Below, in pieces: positions 9,062-16,138 of a stretch of 64,000 nucleotides of DNA (its first letter is position 1; every line of letters begins with the position of its first letter). Source of the DNA: a virus; IMG/VR virus record IMGVR_UViG_3300005253_000054, positions 36,284-100,283 of that record. One strand, written 5' to 3'. The notes under the pieces are model-generated. The model was not told the DNA's origin. It saw nothing but the letters and a program-made list of their open reading frames with translations, and did no database searches. A program made the position numbers and the translations under genes.

Positions 9062-9432
9062 TTTGGCCATCAGGAATAGAATGTGATAGTAACGAAATTG
9101 AGTTGTGGTATGATGATCTTGACGAGGATGTTATGGGCAAAATCAATAGGTGTCTAAAAGAAAAGGGTTTTCAGTTTGTGGATGATGGCTTAATACACGA
9201 TGGGTATTCTGCCTATCGTTTGGAGAAGTTGTGATATGAAAGTTGGGAAAGAAGTTAGTGTGACTCCAGTATGTCAAGGGTGGTGTAGTGTGTTTGCTAC
9301 AAATTTAGTTCCATTAACGGTATCAATACTTGGTAAAACGAAATTAGAAGAAAAATCACAAGTGGAATTTGCTAAAGAAGTTTATGAATGTTATCGACAG
9401 AAACAAGCCAAGGAACGTGGAGAATTAGAAGA

Positions 9433-12400
9433 TTGAATTATCAAACATTCCTCAAAACGAAACGACTACGAACCGATCCTAAAGGATTCGATCCGATATG
9501 GTTACCAGATTGGTTATTCGGATTCCAAAACCATTTGTGTGATTGGTCGATTCGTTTGGGCAGGTCTGCTTTATACGAGGACTGTGGGCTTGGCAAAGGC
9601 AGTCCTCCCAATATGCCTGTTTTAACTCCCACTGGATTTGTCCCAATAGGCAGTTTGGAAATTGGTGATTCTGTTATAGCTTCTGATGGAAAATCCTATG
9701 ATGTAAAGGGGGTTTACTTCAAACCGAGGCAGGATGTTTTCAGATTATGGTTTAGTGATGGTGTTTCGTTAGTAGTGGATTCTGACCATTTGCATATATG
9801 CCGAACAAATAATGACAGACAAAGAGATAAGCCCTGGCGTGTTTTGAGTACCAAGGAATTGTTGGAATGTAATAATTTGAGATATGGTAGTGATGGGAAG
9901 TCTCGTAATTACGATATTCCCGTTGTTGGTCCAGTGGAGTTTTCAGTGGATTGCCCCAAAACATTGACACCATATATTATCGGAGCCTTGTTGGGAGACG
10001 GTTGTACTTCTCAACCAAGTATGATTCAATTCACATCTGCGGATTCTGAGATTGTCAACAGGATCAATAATGAATTGTTGGGTGGTGTTGAATTAGTTTA
10101 TAAAGATCGTTATGAATACCGGTTAAAAACTGGTAAGACTGGTTGTGTGAAACATCCTATTCGTGCTTTTTTGTATCGGATTGGGATGATGGGGAAATTG
10201 TCGTATCAAAAAAGTATTCCAAAAGAATACCTTATGTCGAAACGAATAGAGGATAGGTTGGATTTGCTTCGTGGTTTGATGGACACGGATGGGTACATAA
10301 TGAAGTGTGGTACTTCTCAGTTCTATTCTGTTAGTAGAAAGCTTGCGACAGACGTGGAGTTTTTGGTCAGAAGTCTTGGGGGTGTTCCCACTTTTTCTAG
10401 GAAGCAAACCAGTTTGAATGGAGAACGAAAGAGGGATTGTTATACTGTTACATTTTCATTAAAGACCTTCAATCCTTTCTTTCTGTCGAGAAAAGCAGAA
10501 AGATGGAATCCCGATCCTAGGGACAATGGTAGGTGGATTGATTCCATTGACTATGAGGGACAATCTGAGACAGTGTGTATTTCTGTTGATTCTCCTGATT
10601 CTAGTTATGTCACTAGGAGTTTCATTGTTACACACAATACTCCCCAGCAATTAGTATGGGCTGAGAATGTGGTTAGACACACAAACAAACCCGTTTTGAT
10701 TGTGGCACCTTTGGCTGTATCCGCTCAGTTTGTTACAGAGGCAGAGAAGTTTGGGGTAGGGATACATCGTAGCCGTGATGGTAGATTGAAAAAGGGAATC
10801 AATGTTACGAATTACGAGCGATTACATCATTTTGATCCGAAGAGATTAGCTGGAATATCCTGCGACGAGTGTTTCCCTCCGGGAACGGCAATAGATGTTG
10901 TGAACCCCCTTGACAATTCTTTAGAAAAGAAGTATATTGAAGATATTGCACGGGGTGACCAAATTCTCAATGCTTCTGGAGTAGATCATGTCAAACATAT
11001 ATGGAAGAGAAAAATCAACGGGGCGGTTCAAGTCGGCACCGAAGGATCTAAAATTACCTGTAGCGAAAATCATCCATTCTTTACCTTGCATGGTTGGAAA
11101 TTCGCACGAGATTTACGAGCCGGAGATTGTGTCATGGAGACAGCCTCGGCAATGTACTTGGTGCGGGGAGATTTTCAATCCGAAATATGTAGCGAACAAG
11201 ATGGCGAGATTTTGCGGAACATCTTGCTCAGCGAAATGGCGGATGAATACACCGGAACACAAAGCAAAAGTACACAATCCAACTGTTGCCAAAAAAAGAG
11301 GAAAATCGAAAGCATTATGGTTCAGAGGAGGATCAGCAACAGCCAAAAAAGAACTCAAGCGGATAGCCGAGTTGTGTCCGATGAAAGATCCGAAAGTGAG
11401 AGCGAAGGTGTCCAAACGATTGAAAGAGATAGGACACAAGCCGAGGATTCAGGGAGGGAATGGGAGACCTTTGACGGAGCCGCAACAGATGCTATTAGAT
11501 TTGTTGGGTGGGGAGTGGGTTGCAGAATATCCAATTACCCTTGGGAAAAAGATACCCGGATATCCAACGAATTACAAGGTAGATATAGGTTGCCAATTAC
11601 GAAAAACAGCAATCGAGTTGGATGGGCATTCTCATTATTCCAGAAAAGAATTGGATCAGAAGAAAGACGAAATGCTGGCTTCGTTAGGGTGGACAGTGTT
11701 GAGGTTTTGGAATTGGGACATCCTAGATTGGATAAATGGAGGGATGAAAAAGGAGACGTCTATTTCTATGATATTGAAGCAACACGACATCCATCTTTCA
11801 GTGTGAATGGTTTGTTAGTACACAATTCGTCTATCCTAAAAAACTTTGATGGAAAGATGCGAAGAAGAATTACAGATTTTGTATCATCTATCAATTATCG
11901 TCTCCTATGCACGGCCACCCCAGCACCAAATGACCACATGGAATTGGGAACATCCTCCGAAGCATTGGGTGTAATGAGCCGTGGTCAGATGCTAGGAATG
12001 TTTTTCGTTAATGGTGGGGAAACAACGCAACAATGGTTGCTAAAAGGTCACGCGAAGAAACGATTCTGGCAATGGATGGGAACGTGGGCCAGGGCTATTC
12101 GTATGCCATCTGATCTTGGTTTTGATGACGGGGATTTTATTTTACCAGAGTTGATAATGAAACAGCATCTTGTACCTAGTGAGGTTACGGATGGATTCTT
12201 TCCTACTATGGCTGTTACGTTGGATGAGCAGAGGGCAGAACGAAAACGGACGATGCAGGCTAGGTGCGAAAAAGTGGCTGAGATTGTTCCTAATGATAGG
12301 CCATTTGTTGCTTGGTGTCATCTGAATCCAGAATCAGATTTGCTGGAGAAGTTGATTCCTGATGCCGTTCAAGTTAGTGGTAGTATGAAAGATGAGGTGA

Positions 12401-12759
12401 AAGAGGAGCGATTGAAAGCGTTTGCTGATGGGCAGATAAGGGTACTGGTTACTAAACCAAAAATTGCTTCATTCGGTCTTAATTGGCAGCACTGTGCTGA
12501 TATGTCATTCTTCCCGTCTCATAGTCATGAGCAATTTTATCAGTCTTTACGACGATGTTATCGGTTCCAACAAGAGAATTCAGTAACTTGTAATATCGTT
12601 ACGAGTGAGGCTGAGAGTAGAGTTTTGGATAACATGATGCGGAAAGAGCGGCAGGCTGTGGAAATGTATGATGGGATCGTAAGAGAAATGGGTAGGGCTT
12701 TGGATGAATCGAATGGGCAAAAAGGAAACGAGGAAACGAGTATACCGTCATGGTTGTAA
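9433..12759 (+). CDS. SNF2-like SF2 helicase containing two inteins
   Basis: After removing the inteins: GLGK|T Walker A, DE|SS Walker B, TATP, FGLNWQ, QSLRRCYRFQQ. Confidence 0.9.
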   Translation: MNYQTFLKTKRLRTDPKGFDPIWLPDWLFGFQNHLCDWSIRLGRSALYEDCGLGKGSPPNMPVLTPTGFVPIGSLEIGDSVIASDGKSYDVKGVYFKPRQDVFRLWFSDGVSLVVDSDHLHICRTNNDRQRDKPWRVLSTKELLECNNLRYGSDGKSRNYDIPVVGPVEFSVDCPKTLTPYIIGALLGDGCTSQPSMIQFTSADSEIVNRINNELLGGVELVYKDRYEYRLKTGKTGCVKHPIRAFLYRIGMMGKLSYQKSIPKEYLMSKRIEDRLDLLRGLMDTDGYIMKCGTSQFYSVSRKLATDVEFLVRSLGGVPTFSRKQTSLNGERKRDCYTVTFSLKTFNPFFLSRKAERWNPDPRDNGRWIDSIDYEGQSETVCISVDSPDSSYVTRSFIVTHNTPQQLVWAENVVRHTNKPVLIVAPLAVSAQFVTEAEKFGVGIHRSRDGRLKKGINVTNYERLHHFDPKRLAGISCDECFPPGTAIDVVNPLDNSLEKKYIEDIARGDQILNASGVDHVKHIWKRKINGAVQVGTEGSKITCSENHPFFTLHGWKFARDLRAGDCVMETASAMYLVRGDFQSEICSEQDGEILRNILLSEMADEYTGTQSKSTQSNCCQKKRKIESIMVQRRISNSQKRTQADSRVVSDERSESESEGVQTIERDRTQAEDSGREWETFDGAATDAIRFVGWGVGCRISNYPWEKDTRISNELQGRYRLPITKNSNRVGWAFSLFQKRIGSEERRNAGFVRVDSVEVLELGHPRLDKWRDEKGDVYFYDIEATRHPSFSVNGLLVHNSSILKNFDGKMRRRITDFVSSINYRLLCTATPAPNDHMELGTSSEALGVMSRGQMLGMFFVNGGETTQQWLLKGHAKKRFWQWMGTWARAIRMPSDLGFDDGDFILPELIMKQHLVPSEVTDGFFPTMAVTLDEQRAERKRTMQARCEKVAEIVPNDRPFVAWCHLNPESDLLEKLIPDAVQVSGSMKDEVKEERLKAFADGQIRVLVTKPKIASFGLNWQHCADMSFFPSHSHEQFYQSLRRCYRFQQENSVTCNIVTSEAESRVLDNMMRKERQAVEMYDGIVREMGRALDESNGQKGNEETSIPSWL
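9598..10638 (+). mobile_element. Intein 1 (347 aa) with in-frame LAGLIDADG endonuclease; Gly at position 1, class-3-like
   Basis: GSPPNMPVLTPTGF ... VCISV ... IVTHN|T; YIIGALLGDG and LLRGLMDTDG motifs; splicing restores GLGKT. Confidence 0.9.
10910..10938 (+). promoter_or_regulatory. Sigma70-like promoter inside intein 2
   Basis: TTGACA-17 nt-TATATT; SD GGAG at 10978-10981 before ATG 10988. Confidence 0.75.
10988..11806 (+). CDS. Vsr/DUF559-like endonuclease with Zn finger, nested in the +1 frame of intein 2
   Basis: CTWCG..FCGTSC; YKVDIG..AIELDGHSH..DQKKDEMLASLGWTVLRFWN. Confidence 0.85.
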   Translation: MSNIYGREKSTGRFKSAPKDLKLPVAKIIHSLPCMVGNSHEIYEPEIVSWRQPRQCTWCGEIFNPKYVANKMARFCGTSCSAKWRMNTPEHKAKVHNPTVAKKRGKSKALWFRGGSATAKKELKRIAELCPMKDPKVRAKVSKRLKEIGHKPRIQGGNGRPLTEPQQMLLDLLGGEWVAEYPITLGKKIPGYPTNYKVDIGCQLRKTAIELDGHSHYSRKELDQKKDEMLASLGWTVLRFWNWDILDWINGGMKKETSISMILKQHDIHLSV

Positions 12760-14037: not shown

Positions 14038-14296
14038 ATTGTAAGGAGAATGATACGAAATGAGCACCATAAAAATAGATGATGATGGTTATGCGAAAGT
14101 CACGACTGGTAATCTTACGGCTAGATTCGGTTGGGATGGTCATCCAAATGGTGCTAGGGGAATCGAACGTGCTTGTGAGCAGATAGCTAAGCTACAGAAT
14201 ATAATACTTGAACAACGCAAAATCCTCGACAAGTTGCCGAAGGATGCTGAAGGAAACGTGTACCCGCCGCCAAGCTCCTAACCGAAAGGATTGACG

Positions 14297-16138
14297 ATGC
14301 CCCCAGAACTCTATCGTAAATACCGACCTACCAAATTCTCAGAGGTATTAGGTCAACCTGAAGCAATCAAGACCCTAAACGATTGGGGCAAGCAAAAAGC
14401 GATACCCCACTTCCTGCTATTCACAGGCCCTAGTGGGTGTTTGCGTGGGGATACGAAGATATTTGATCCGGTGGATTCTAGTGATTTGTCTATTCGGGAG
14501 CGTTGGAGGATTGGTCATCCTTTCCATGTTTTGTCGAGGAACGAGGATAACAGGCTGGTAGTGGCGGAAGCGATGCCACCGGTCCGCCATTCTCCAGATT
14601 GGATGTATCGTGTAAAAACTTCTGAATCGCTTTTTTACGTAACGTCCGAACACCAGTTCCTCGTTGACACTGGTGAGTACCTTTCATTGAGGGAACTTTA
14701 CGCTCGGAGATTCGACGGAGTCCATCTTCTGACCACTTGGGACATTTCCCAAGCAATTCAACACCAAGATGCTCACCATTGTTTGCAAACAAGATTAGAT
14801 TATTCGGATCGTTATCGGTCTTATCCCCGTTTTTATGATGAACGACTTCCGATTCAGTCAGATATCGATTCAAAATACGCTCAAGCACCAAACGATGTTC
14901 TAGGACGTAACCGTTTCTCGCATTTGGATGTTTTGGCATCCGTATCAAAACATAACCATCCCCGTCAATTACACGACCACCTTTCCAGGCAGGATTATCG
15001 ACACCACGTTGGAAAGAATACTGTGGACGAATTTGGGTGTTTGAACGTTTCAACGATTCACGAACGTTTTGACGTTTTGTCTTCAGACGTTTTGCGATTT
15101 GTTTCTGAGTCCAACCGTCTTGATACATGCCCGAAACTAACTTGTCCCGTTCTGGAGTCCAAATACGACGCCTGTGTGGATAGAAGCCTTTTGGCATTGT
15201 CTTCTCCTTGTTTTGATAGGACCATATTCTCTAGTACCATTATACAAGATATCTCCCAAACAAGCAAGCAGCCCTACTATGATTTTCATGTTCCTATTTA
15301 CGAGAATTATTGGGCTGGTGGTTTGATTCATCATAATTGTGGCAAAACGACTTTAGCCCGAATTCTTCGGAAGAAACTCAAGTGTTCCGACCACGATTTT
15401 ATAGAGGTGAATGCCGCCGAGACAAACGGGATTGATATGGTGCGGTCTATCGCGAGGGTAATGGGCCTTGCACCGATGATGGGCAGGTGTAGGGTGTGGC
15501 TCATAGATGAGGCTGCTAGGCTCACTAAGGATGCTCAGAGTGCTTTCCTCAAGATGCTGGAGGATACGCCCGAACACGTCTATTTTATGCTGGCGACAAC
15601 TGATCCTCAGAAGTTACTACCCACGATTATGACAAGGGCATCTGAGATTAAGGTAAAGGCTTTATCTTCTAAGGATATGACGGATTTGGTTAGAGGCGTA
15701 CGTCATCAAGAGGAGCAAGCCAATTCTGAAGAGGATTTGGTTGGAATATCCGATGACGTTTGTGATAAAATTATTGACATAGCAGACGGATCGGCAAGGA
15801 AAGCATTGGTCCTATTGCATCAAGTGATTGGTGAAGGGGACGAGGAGAAGCAGTTAGCGGTCTTGCAACAGGCAGATAGCAAGCAACAGGCAATTGAGAT
15901 TTGCCGATTGCTAATGAAAGCGAATACATCGTGGAAGCAGATGGCTAAGCTGCTTAGAGCCGTTGACGACGAGCCGGAGGGTATCAGGCGGCTGATGTTG
16001 GCTTATATGACCAAGGTAGGGCTGAGTGGTAATAAGAGGGCCATCGTGTGTCTTGAGGCGTTTGAGGAGCCTTATTTCAATACTGGCAGGGCAGGATTGG
16101 TTTTGTCCTGTTGGAATGTAATCAATGGAGGTGGATGA
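14297..16138 (+). CDS. dnaX: Clamp loader (DNA pol III gamma/tau-like) with intein
   Basis: LYRKYRPTKFSEVLGQ; GPSG|CGKT after splicing; IDEA; AFLKMLEDTP. Confidence 0.9.
   Translation: MPPELYRKYRPTKFSEVLGQPEAIKTLNDWGKQKAIPHFLLFTGPSGCLRGDTKIFDPVDSSDLSIRERWRIGHPFHVLSRNEDNRLVVAEAMPPVRHSPDWMYRVKTSESLFYVTSEHQFLVDTGEYLSLRELYARRFDGVHLLTTWDISQAIQHQDAHHCLQTRLDYSDRYRSYPRFYDERLPIQSDIDSKYAQAPNDVLGRNRFSHLDVLASVSKHNHPRQLHDHLSRQDYRHHVGKNTVDEFGCLNVSTIHERFDVLSSDVLRFVSESNRLDTCPKLTCPVLESKYDACVDRSLLALSSPCFDRTIFSSTIIQDISQTSKQPYYDFHVPIYENYWAGGLIHHNCGKTTLARILRKKLKCSDHDFIEVNAAETNGIDMVRSIARVMGLAPMMGRCRVWLIDEAARLTKDAQSAFLKMLEDTPEHVYFMLATTDPQKLLPTIMTRASEIKVKALSSKDMTDLVRGVRHQEEQANSEEDLVGISDDVCDKIIDIADGSARKALVLLHQVIGEGDEEKQLAVLQQADSKQQAIEICRLLMKANTSWKQMAKLLRAVDDEPEGIRRLMLAYMTKVGLSGNKRAIVCLEAFEEPYFNTGRAGLVLSCWNVINGGG
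14490..15197 (-). CDS. HNH homing endonuclease with N-terminal HTH, antisense within intein 3
   Basis: GWTQKQIAKRL HTH; NPAWKGG; YVLEHRLV..EVVHHKNGDKTDNDPNNL; SD AAGGAG 6 nt before ATG. Confidence 0.9.
   Translation of the reverse strand: MPKGFYPHRRRIWTPERDKLVSGMYQDGWTQKQIAKRLKTKRQNVRESLKRSNTQIRPQYSFQRGVDNPAWKGGRVIDGDGYVLIRMPKHPNARNGYVLEHRLVLERILNRYLTESEVVHHKNGDKTDNDPNNLILFANNGEHLGVELLGKCPKWSEDGLRRISERKVPSMKGTHQCQRGTGVRTLRKKAIQKFLHDTSNLENGGPVASLPPLPACYPRSSTKHGKDDQSSNAPE
15239..15267 (-). promoter_or_regulatory. Antisense sigma70-like promoter inside intein 3
   Basis: Minus strand TTGCTT-17 nt-TATAAT, about 40 nt upstream of the HNH ATG. Confidence 0.75.

Follow-up and report, generated by a model that had tools for sequence, protein, structure and literature searches.

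Inteins whose endonuclease gene lies outside the reading frame of the intein have been described in several systems. The dnaX intein of Synechocystis is the classic first case of such a non-canonical intein, its endonuclease being antisense or out-of-frame (Gorbalenya 1998; Gogarten et al. 2002; according to the citing passages of bioRxiv 10.1101/2025.01.02.630785). Inteins of actinophages carry anti-sense LAGLIDADG, anti-sense Vsr-like or out-of-frame EndoVII-like ORFs (bioRxiv 10.1101/2025.01.02.630785), and a cyanobacterial dnaX intein carries a LAGLIDADG ORF in the +2 frame (bioRxiv 10.64898/2026.09.14.751524). HNH nucleases of inteins are reported as in-frame only by both bioRxiv 10.1101/2025.01.02.630785 and bioRxiv 10.64898/2026.09.14.751524. 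In fractured genes, a Vsr-like endonuclease gene of the free-standing kind lies between the halves of a split intein (Dassa et al. 2009, as cited in bioRxiv 10.1101/2025.01.02.630785). Antisense and out-of-frame endonucleases of the LAGLIDADG, Vsr-like and EndoVII types are therefore not new in inteins. The HNH type lying antisense in a clamp-loader gene, which we report here, appears to be new; no description of an antisense HNH in an intein was found in the literature searched, which took in part of the subscription literature.

The locus lies in a window of 64,000 nucleotides of viral DNA, by which we mean the whole stretch that was analysed. The phage it comes from is uncultured and occurs in metagenomes of marine sediment. 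Like the non-canonical inteins, its intein has an endonuclease gene between the splicing halves and outside the intein's own frame, disorder is predicted for the reading in frame, and selection follows the endonuclease frame. The origin proposed is also the same, namely that a free-standing endonuclease gene invaded a mini-intein, and as in Synechocystis the host gene encodes a clamp loader. It differs from them in that the enzyme is an HTH-HNH protein (Pfam HNH_3) rather than LAGLIDADG or Vsr-like, in that the host is the clamp loader of an uncultured phage with the insertion within the Walker-A loop, and in that the HNH ORF exceeds the linker, with around 80 codons overlapping the N-terminal splicing domain. 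With the fractured genes, as these are summarised in the citing preprint, it shares a free-standing endonuclease gene in the endonuclease slot of an intein and an origin in environmental phage-like DNA; there the host gene consists of two ORFs whose products are joined by trans-splicing, whereas here the host ORF is continuous. Canonical bifunctional inteins (with in-frame LAGLIDADG or HNH) agree with it in their splicing blocks, in the place of the endonuclease, which lies between blocks B and F, and in the homing cycle presumed for them, but are made as one polypeptide, in contrast to two predicted proteins from opposite strands.

The clamp-loader gene on the plus strand is split by a class-1 intein of 300 aa (14438-15337), and the insertion point is inside the Walker-A loop of the phage protein (GPSG/CGKT, where the slash marks the junction). 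Its features are as follows.

14291..14437, plus strand: N-extein of the clamp loader, 49 aa, ending ...FTGPSG (PHROG 5846 clamp loader, 4.6e-54; Pfam DNA_pol3_delta2; aligns with the intein-less protein P0145).
14438..15337, plus strand: putative class-1 intein, 300 aa, from Cys1 to His-Asn and followed by Cys+1 (missing exactly from P0145; invariant residues; Hint-fold model).
14438..14740, plus strand: N-terminal splicing domain of the intein, residues 1-101 (AF2 pLDDT 63-91 per 10-residue block, beta-rich).
14741..15223, plus strand: intein linker, residues 102-262, a sense filler that is the reverse reading of the HNH gene (pLDDT <50, secondary structure absent).
15224..15337, plus strand: C-terminal splicing domain of the intein, residues 263-300, ending ...YYDFHVPIYENYWAGGLIHHN (kept in full and mini-intein alleles; model strand 265-282).
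15338..16138, plus strand: C-extein of the clamp loader, from CGKTT... through the stop codon (PHROG and Pfam matches; 94% identical to P0145).

The intein borders proposed in the earlier note proved to be exact, as P0145 aligns through GPSG/CGKT without precisely 300 residues (50-349); the intein-less junction sequence reads ...GGCCCTAGTGGG/TGTGGCAAAACGAC.... The AF2 model of the intein resembles the Hint fold of the Mtu RecA, Npu DnaE and Ssp DnaB mini-inteins (E 6e-5 to 2e-4 over about 100 columns, with Mtu RecA at E 6e-5), and Pfam Intein_splicing scored below its cut-off (16.4 vs 35.8 bits). The conserved blocks, in a gene presumably needed for phage replication, suggest that the clamp-loader precursor is spliced. 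A degenerate in-frame endonuclease in the linker was considered and rejected, given the absence of any Pfam family and the pLDDT below 50. The helicase gene of the same window has a canonical intein with an in-frame LAGLIDADG_3 domain. The 615-aa precursor was missed by gene callers because these choose one strand only, and the contig's recorded proteins are limited to the HNH protein (P0025) and, for the clamp loader, a C-terminal fragment of 233 aa (P0146).

On the minus strand, the following features lie within the intein.

14490..15197, minus strand: HTH-HNH endonuclease gene, 235 aa plus stop, ATG start, nested antisense wholly within the intein (ORF, Pfam, PHROG, conservation in ten loci).
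15024..15176, minus strand: predicted N-terminal helix-turn-helix DNA-binding domain, residues 8-58 (three helices with pLDDT >90; structural matches; weak Pfam).
14745..15008, minus strand: HNH nuclease core, residues 64-151 (Pfam HNH_3; I-HmuI structural match).
14493..14744, minus strand: C-terminal tail of the HNH protein, residues 152-235, over the N-terminal splicing domain of the intein (tail conserved among nested copies).
15204..15209, minus strand: Shine-Dalgarno AAGGAG, 6 nt upstream of the ATG (read in the sequence; kept across loci).
15239..15267, minus strand: promoter-like box TTGCTT-17 nt-TATAAT (sequence confirmed; candidate).

An HNH gene had been proposed here from its motifs, and the ORF from 15197 to 14490 is real: it has 235 aa, begins with ATG, lies fully inside the intein and contains NPAWKGG, EHRLV and VVHHKNGDKTDN..NL. 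The protein matches Pfam HNH_3 (PF13392; 26.4 bits against a cut-off of 24.8, E 5.4e-6) and PHROG 20891, 'HNH endonuclease' (1e-28). Its predicted catalytic residues H120, H121, N129, N133, N140 and H143, the conservation of which the earlier note had left to be checked, are invariant in 42 sequences. The proposed HTH gains support from weak Pfam matches (E 0.007-0.05) together with a model showing three helices in residues 8-58, which gave Z 5.8-6.7 to the DNA-binding domains of GcrA, DeoR, KorB and resolvase (6-6.7 for GcrA and resolvase). The AF2 model of the whole protein has a mean pLDDT of 82. The best structural match of the core (residues 64-151) is I-HmuI (1u3e), with Z 6.9, rmsd 3.8, 80 residues aligned and 25% identity in VIA-align. 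Foldseek with the HNH model gave nothing at E <= 0.001, I-HmuI surfacing only on the second look with VIA-align, and a profile search of PDB sequences with the protein returned HTH-like matches only. We regard the I-HmuI match (Foldseek E 0.18, VIA-align Z 6.9) as moderate. By this match, the modelled core has the beta-beta-alpha-metal fold. I-HmuI, like the putatively site-specific enzyme of the window, is a phage-borne, site-specific HNH enzyme tied to a self-splicing element. It is encoded within a group I intron, in contrast to the antisense position in an intein found here, and has its nuclease at the N-terminus and its DNA-binding modules at the C-terminus, whereas the HTH of the window's protein is N-terminal.

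Blastn with the gene gave zero matches among cultured phage records, and tblastn with the protein gave partial matches of the free-standing type only, none covering >=80% of the query. The tail of nested copies carries the motif IPSMKG...GVR..R.K.IQKFLHETS and this nested-type tail is found in at least 16 protein clusters; a free-standing relative in L002 stops shortly past the RCPEWTEDG motif. The description of this ORF as the only convincing minus-strand gene is consistent with our survey of the window, in which seven other minus-strand ORFs of >=125 aa have no Pfam family. The data support the ORF as a probable genuine endonuclease gene with its own translation start, nested antisense in the intein.

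The same intein, antisense ORF, frame relation and GGAG Shine-Dalgarno are present in nine further distinct viral contigs, with host proteins 33-54% identical, so that ten distinct loci could be compared (the window, L085-L090, L092, L095 and L097). Their inteins are 298-310 aa long and occupy the same site, and their antisense ORFs are 220-235 aa long and start MPKG[IVF]Y. The HNH ATG lies 137-158 nt from the 3' end of the intein and the HNH stop 52-91 nt within its 5' end. In 10/10 loci the first codon positions of the HNH and intein frames coincide, so that HNH position 3 lies on intein position 2 and HNH position 2 on intein position 3. C1, T69/H72 (the TxxH of block B) and H299-N300 are invariant in 10/10 inteins, as is Cys+1 (CGKT) in 10/10 intein-bearing loci.

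The Shine-Dalgarno AAGGAG at 15209-15204, 6 nt 5' of the HNH ATG, is as previously claimed. A 4-mer of the AAGGAGG core occurs within -20 to -4 of the ATG (17 nt) in 10/10 loci, over unconstrained sense linker, although the loci are related and this count, like those for stop avoidance given below, does not represent ten independent events. The claim of a promoter was not supported. TTGCTT (15267-15262), a 17 nt spacer and TATAAT (15244-15239) are present as described, with 3/6 consensus matches in the -35 hexamer and 6/6 in the -10 hexamer (by the sigma-70 consensus, which may not be the promoter type of the host), but a consensus promoter scan did not list the site. Similar TTGnCn-17/18-TATAnT boxes occur in most of the ten loci, a -10-like hexamer not being scored in L095 and L097. 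The HNH-less mini-intein L098 has TTGGCC-18-TATAAT at the equivalent place. Because the box is present there without an HNH ORF, the codons of the intein itself explain why it is conserved, and we rejected this conservation as evidence for a promoter.

We then compared variability at the three codon positions of the HNH frame. Over HNH residues 1-150 it was around 0.27-0.56, 0.17-0.44 and 0.57-0.67 at positions 1, 2 and 3, an order (position 3 > 1 > 2) which shows that purifying selection acts on the HNH frame rather than the sense frame. Over residues 151-210 variability was low at all codon positions and the order was flipped, and in the tail HNH position 2 (intein position 3) was at least as variable as positions 1 and 3. 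Codons around 151-210, which lie over the N-terminal splicing domain, look constrained on both strands.

The sense-linker frame has 0 stops in 2272 codons over the ten loci, whereas in 67 free-standing homologues the corresponding antisense frame has 2.83 stops per 100 codons. A Phe with I, M, T, N or K next after it, which would force a stop on the sense strand, was found at 0/62 Phe positions in nested HNHs vs 43/349 in the others. The sense linker thus appears to be an unstructured filler kept free of stops by selection. Mean identity was 0.52 for the HNH core, 0.57 for the splicing domains, 0.42 for the extein and 0.29 for the sense linker, which shares its DNA with the HNH core. Furthermore, HNH distances followed those of the splicing domains (Spearman r 0.48), and neither of the two sets was correlated with the extein distances (r 0.14 and 0.10), and judged from these distances the intein and HNH diverge together, independently of the extein.

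Related alleles without the intein, or with a mini-intein, had been suggested as a check, and both kinds were found: P0145, which is 94% identical in the extein, and L081-L084 are intein-less, and L098, P0009, P0010 and P0012 have mini-inteins. On the extein tree the presence of the intein implies 7 changes or more, and well-supported branches force at least 4 of these, although the intein-less sequences were sampled around the window's extein, which biases this count, and repeated precise loss is indistinguishable from repeated gain. The 94%-identical intein-less allele, the mini-intein alleles and the scattered distribution point to the intein and HNH gene being a mobile unit. As for a homing endonuclease, the gene lies within a putative self-splicing element, close alleles are free of the element, and the distribution is sporadic and incongruent with the host gene, within a sampling biased to the window. 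The homing role that the earlier note gave to the nuclease is supported by these comparisons, namely selection on the HNH frame, P0145, the mini-inteins, the scattered distribution and the co-divergence of intein and HNH separately from the extein. Cleavage at GPSG/CGKT would fit this role, and the conserved TGYGGNAARACNAC (CGKT) adjoining the junction is the candidate target.

Collectively our data are consistent with a model, which we hold to be probable, where a complete HTH-HNH gene of the free-standing type sits antisense in the endonuclease slot of the clamp-loader intein, opposite a stop-free sense filler, and intein and HNH gene home together. The gene encodes an HTH at the N-terminus, followed by an HNH core resembling that of I-HmuI and a tail of helices, and has its own ATG and Shine-Dalgarno. 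The forward reading of the slot is a filler of around 160 unstructured residues, kept stop-free by selection so that the precursor can be translated through; the two Hint halves would then associate and the intein be spliced out, leaving a working clamp loader. The HNH protein, made separately, would nick or cut intein-less clamp-loader alleles near TGYGGNAARACNAC, and repair from an intein-bearing copy would then transfer the intein along with the HNH gene.

HNH genes of this family also lie antisense, with equal frame relation, within terminase inteins and within those of an SNF2 helicase and of AAA+ ATPases (L003, L004, L016, L019, L103-L108, L114 and L118), and between the window and L103 likeness is confined to the intein. 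The pair of intein and HNH thus recurs at Walker-A sites of unrelated NTPases. Members of the family also lie antisense within DNA methylase genes that have no evident Hint domain (L052, L130 and L135).

An unlikely alternative, though the one that survives best, is that the HNH is active without driving the homing of this intein. The linker would then be a safe landing place, from which the gene is lost only by precise deletion, and the enzyme would do its cutting elsewhere, as in the genomes of competing phages (marker exclusion) or during DNA packaging. The copies in methylase genes would fit such a role, as would the closest relatives of the HNH outside inteins, which are ordinary free-standing phage HNH genes. 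Against it stand the divergence of HNH and splicing domains together and independently of the extein, the repeated pairing at Walker-A sites of unrelated NTPases, and a 94%-identical allele that lacks both intein and HNH. We give still less weight to the HNH ORF being a decaying remnant in a fixed, vertically inherited intein, held open by inertia or by constraint on the sense frame. The mini-intein alleles show that loss of the endonuclease is possible, but the ORF is intact in 10/10 loci at around 50% identity, the nested-type tail is spread over 16 or more protein clusters, none of the catalytic residues varies, the codon-position pattern places purifying selection on the HNH and not the sense frame, and the Shine-Dalgarno is kept in all loci.

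It is very improbable that the antisense unit is mainly regulatory, its RNA pairing with the clamp-loader mRNA to tune its level and the HNH protein being secondary. By geometry any HNH transcript would be the full complement of around 0.7 kb of that mRNA, but selection acts on the protein reading of the antisense strand, and the entire element is lacking in near-identical as well as related phages; the antisense modulation suggested in the earlier note is pure speculation. That the clamp loader is simply disrupted, its long plus-strand ORF being a chance product or an assembly artefact, might be read from the uncalled precursor but is already refuted by the comparative data, with the same sequence in three metagenome runs (94-99% of sampled words), a layout common to ten diverged loci, the stop-free sense codons, and the splicing blocks and modelled Hint fold, so that its probability is close to nil. 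Contigs of four marine-sediment DNA runs gave the same sequence, and neither a joint skipping the intein nor an informative variant was found in them.

Returning to the model of joint homing, a wider reading can be put forward only tentatively, and we think it more doubtful than the model itself. Walker-A inteins with an antisense HNH_3 gene may form a large, mostly unannotated superfamily that moves among unrelated P-loop NTPases (clamp loader, terminase, SNF2 helicase, AAA+ ATPases) using GKT-coding DNA as a common homing site. The block-F codons, which spell an antisense -35/-10-like box even in the HNH-less mini-intein, might leave these inteins pre-adapted for taking up an endonuclease gene, and for expressing it, in just that orientation and frame.

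For the origin of bifunctional inteins, this family offers a clean and well-sampled example of the route by which a free-standing endonuclease invades a mini-intein, and a single gene family has all of its stages: alleles that lack the intein, alleles with a mini-intein, and inteins carrying the HNH gene antisense. It is also a strong natural case of two-strand coding, with around 700 nt open on both strands, around 60 codons apparently constrained on both, and a mark of dual coding left on the nuclease protein in the absence of Phe-[IMTNK] dipeptides. As the precursor is missed by gene callers, essential phage genes are therefore mis-annotated and such inteins under-counted. Possible tools may follow from a putative site-specific HNH enzyme recognising Walker-A coding DNA and from mini-inteins that would tolerate a disordered insert of 160 residues.

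The window is phage-like, and in our ORF survey its long ORFs are almost all on the plus strand; the public runs containing this stretch are marine-sediment metagenomes. The Walker-A loop of its clamp loader reads GPSG, then a 300-residue insert with Cys first and His-Asn last, then CGKT. An earlier note had placed an antisense HNH endonuclease unit, complete with promoter and Shine-Dalgarno sequence, within this insert. The features concerned are as follows, the sequences of the last two being those of the earlier note.

14291-16138, plus strand: clamp loader with intein, 615 aa (PHROG 5846 at 4.6e-54 and Pfam DNA_pol3_delta2)
15197..14490, minus strand: HNH endonuclease gene, 235 aa (Pfam HNH_3 over cut-off; PHROG 'HNH endonuclease' at 1e-28)
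6 nt ahead of the HNH ATG, minus strand: Shine-Dalgarno AAGGAG
about 40 nt further upstream, minus strand: promoter-like box TTGCTT-17-TATAAT

The database protein P0145 (315 aa) has 94% identity to the window's extein, and exactly the 300 residues are absent from it, giving GPSG|CGKT. C1, block B residues T69 and H72, and H299-N300 are invariant in the alignment of 10 inteins. In the AlphaFold model built from this alignment, residues 1-101 and 263-300 are folded and the model matches the Mtu RecA, Npu DnaE and Ssp DnaB mini-inteins (E 6e-5 to 2e-4). As judged from these comparisons and the predicted fold, the insert is a genuine intein with precise borders. For residues 102-262 the pLDDT falls below 50 and the model has no secondary structure; this disordered part is the HNH gene read in reverse. 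The database proteins for this contig are only the HNH protein P0025 and a 233-aa C-terminal clamp-loader fragment, P0146; the 615-aa precursor (window 14291-16138) was never called and the clamp loader is therefore mis-annotated.

The antisense HNH gene in the clamp-loader intein is confirmed as an observation, its ORF and domain matches bearing out the earlier claim. In the protein model (pLDDT 82), residues 8-58 form a three-helix HTH and residues 64-151 a beta-beta-alpha core, followed by a helical tail. Structurally the core comes closest to I-HmuI, a homing endonuclease (Z 6.9, 80 aligned residues, 25% identity). Conservation of the HNH catalytic residues, on which the earlier note had staked its reading, is complete: none of H120, H121, N129, N133, N140 and H143 varies across 42 sequences, both nested and free-standing.

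When aligned intein-bearing clamp loaders were used for a pattern search of IMG/VR, full-size inteins turned up at 13 loci, nine of which are distinct both from one another and from the window. Every full-size-intein locus has an antisense ORF of 220-235 aa that starts MPKG[IVF]Y and carries NPAWKGG, EHRLV, VVHHKNG, DN and NL. Codon position 1 of the HNH gene is that of the intein in 10/10 loci, with the HNH ATG 137-158 nt ahead of the intein 3' end and the stop 52-91 nt within its 5' end; extein identity among the ten is only 33-54%. Further members are known as protein only from a large protein database (P0004, P0006-P0008, P0011 and P0013), and the nested-form tail is present in at least 16 HNH clusters. 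One clamp loader with the same intein, P0005 (991 aa), has some 380 extra residues, which may include a second intein.

In this frame geometry the wobble position of either reading is position 2 of the other. Within HNH residues 1-150, codon position 3 of the HNH frame is the most variable (0.57-0.67), position 1 less so and position 2 least, the signature left by purifying selection that acts on the HNH protein and by a sense reading free of constraint at the protein level. Mean identity of 52% for the HNH core versus 29% for the sense linker from the same DNA accords with selection on the HNH frame. HNH residues 151-210, antisense to the N-terminal splicing domain, show low variability throughout, with position 2 equal to or above the other two; here either intein coding would be dominant or both readings would be constrained. 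Because the free-standing relative L002 stops shortly past the RCPEWTEDG motif, the nested gene appears to have gained its final 60-80 codons by overprinting of the intein.

The host frame contains no stops in the 2272 codons of the ten nested genes; the two remaining antisense frames have about 5 per 100, and the equivalent frame of 67 free-standing homologues has 2.83 per 100. By these counts the host sense frame is maintained open across the HNH gene. Furthermore, with the frames placed in this way, Phe followed by a codon with initial A always creates a sense-strand stop, and Phe-[IMTNK] occurs at 0/62 Phe positions in nested HNH proteins versus 43/349 in other HNH proteins; the nuclease sequence is therefore shaped by the host frame.

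The proposed Shine-Dalgarno sequence held up, a GGAG-type site lying within 17 nt ahead of the HNH ATG in 10/10 loci; read in sense, this stretch gives mere Pro/Ser codons free of constraint. Of the proposed promoter the sequence is present but its function did not gain support. A TTGnCn-17/18-TATAnT box is readable in most of the ten loci, in the codons right ahead of block F, and the mini-intein locus L098, which has no HNH ORF, carries TTGGCC-18-TATAAT at the equivalent place; conservation of the box is hence uninformative on promoter function. The TTGCTT-17-TATAAT site was also absent from the list of a consensus promoter scan. Antisense regulation of the clamp-loader mRNA by the HNH unit is a speculative idea that is not supported.

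The helicase gene of the window (9388-12759, plus strand) has two further inteins. The first is canonical, with an in-frame LAGLIDADG_3 domain (Pfam 7.7e-6). Within the second, an ORF in another plus-strand frame (10988-11806, 272 aa) encodes a DUF559/Vsr-like endonuclease domain (Pfam 2.8e-13), and the in-frame middle has no Pfam domain and reads as low-complexity-like filler. The phage would then carry a second non-canonical intein, its endonuclease lying on the same strand but out of frame; together with the clamp-loader intein, three intein architectures therefore lie inside 6 kb.

Actinophage inteins include anti-sense LAGLIDADG, anti-sense Vsr-like and out-of-frame EndoVII-like endonuclease ORFs, with HNH in-frame only (bioRxiv 10.1101/2025.01.02.630785); that preprint credits the anti-sense LAGLIDADG of the Synechocystis dnaX intein to Gorbalenya 1998 and Gogarten 2002. 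A cyanobacterial dnaX intein has its LAGLIDADG ORF in another frame and, like the window's clamp-loader intein, combines a disordered in-frame region with frame-specific selection (bioRxiv 10.64898/2026.09.14.751524). Our full-text literature search found no published description of an antisense HNH in an intein. Compared with this literature, antisense endonucleases in inteins are already known and the HNH type in antisense is a new variation.

The alleles lacking a full intein that the earlier note had suggested seeking were found: intein-less P0145, the mini-intein locus L098, and three mini-intein proteins of 461-474 aa in the large protein database. In an extein tree of 79 sequences the window and P0145 pair with 100% SH-aLRT branch support. 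On this tree the full intein must have been gained or lost at least seven times, and well-supported branches force at least four of these changes; both counts are biased, since sampling of intein-less rows was centred on the window. Mean identity across loci is higher for the intein (0.57) and HNH (0.52) than for the extein (0.42); intein distances are correlated with HNH distances (r 0.48), and neither set is with those of the extein (r 0.10-0.14). On its C-extein side the junction reads TGYGGNAARACNAC, which is near-constant in intein-bearing and intein-less alleles alike and is the obvious candidate for the recognition site. Collectively, comparison supports well the putative homing role of the intein and its HNH gene. 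One intein-less allele (L083:3001-3906) has Asn for Cys at +1 (SSG|NGKT), so that an inserted intein would be unable to splice, which may protect the allele from invasion.

The HNH family of the clamp-loader intein also occurs antisense, in the identical frame relation, in intein-bearing terminase large subunits (L003, L004, L016, L107 and L118), an SNF2 helicase (L105) and AAA+ ATPases (L103 and L104). Four further loci with this layout (L019, L106, L108 and L114) have an intein or Hint match and no host family by Pfam. A GK[TS] motif adjoins most of the insertions in these loci. In a GTDB genome scan, an opposite-strand ORF of at least 350 codons crosses the HNH match in 17/53 loci, 16 of them in the nested frame relation. 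HNH_3 homologues also lie antisense, in the nested frame relation, in long ORFs reading as DNA methylases (L052:5309-7903, L130:1523-4489 and L135:2440-4164), identified by Pfam N6_N4_Mtase for L052 only and by inspection of the translation for the others; no Hint domain is evident in the three ORFs. For a mycobacteriophage methylase, a 2025 genome announcement (PMC12613952) notes an HNH that is out of frame.

The AAA+ ATPases L103:2662-5109 and L104:2557-6048 carry their intein and antisense HNH at an equivalent G|[CG]GK[TS] site. Homology to the window's intein is established for that of L103, where similarity is confined to the intein (identity 32% in the N-terminal half, 63% in the C-terminal half) and the extein shows no significant similarity to the window's clamp loader. 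This equivalent placement, with a homologous intein in a dissimilar extein in L103, suggests that extein switching occurs via the common Walker-A coding sequence.
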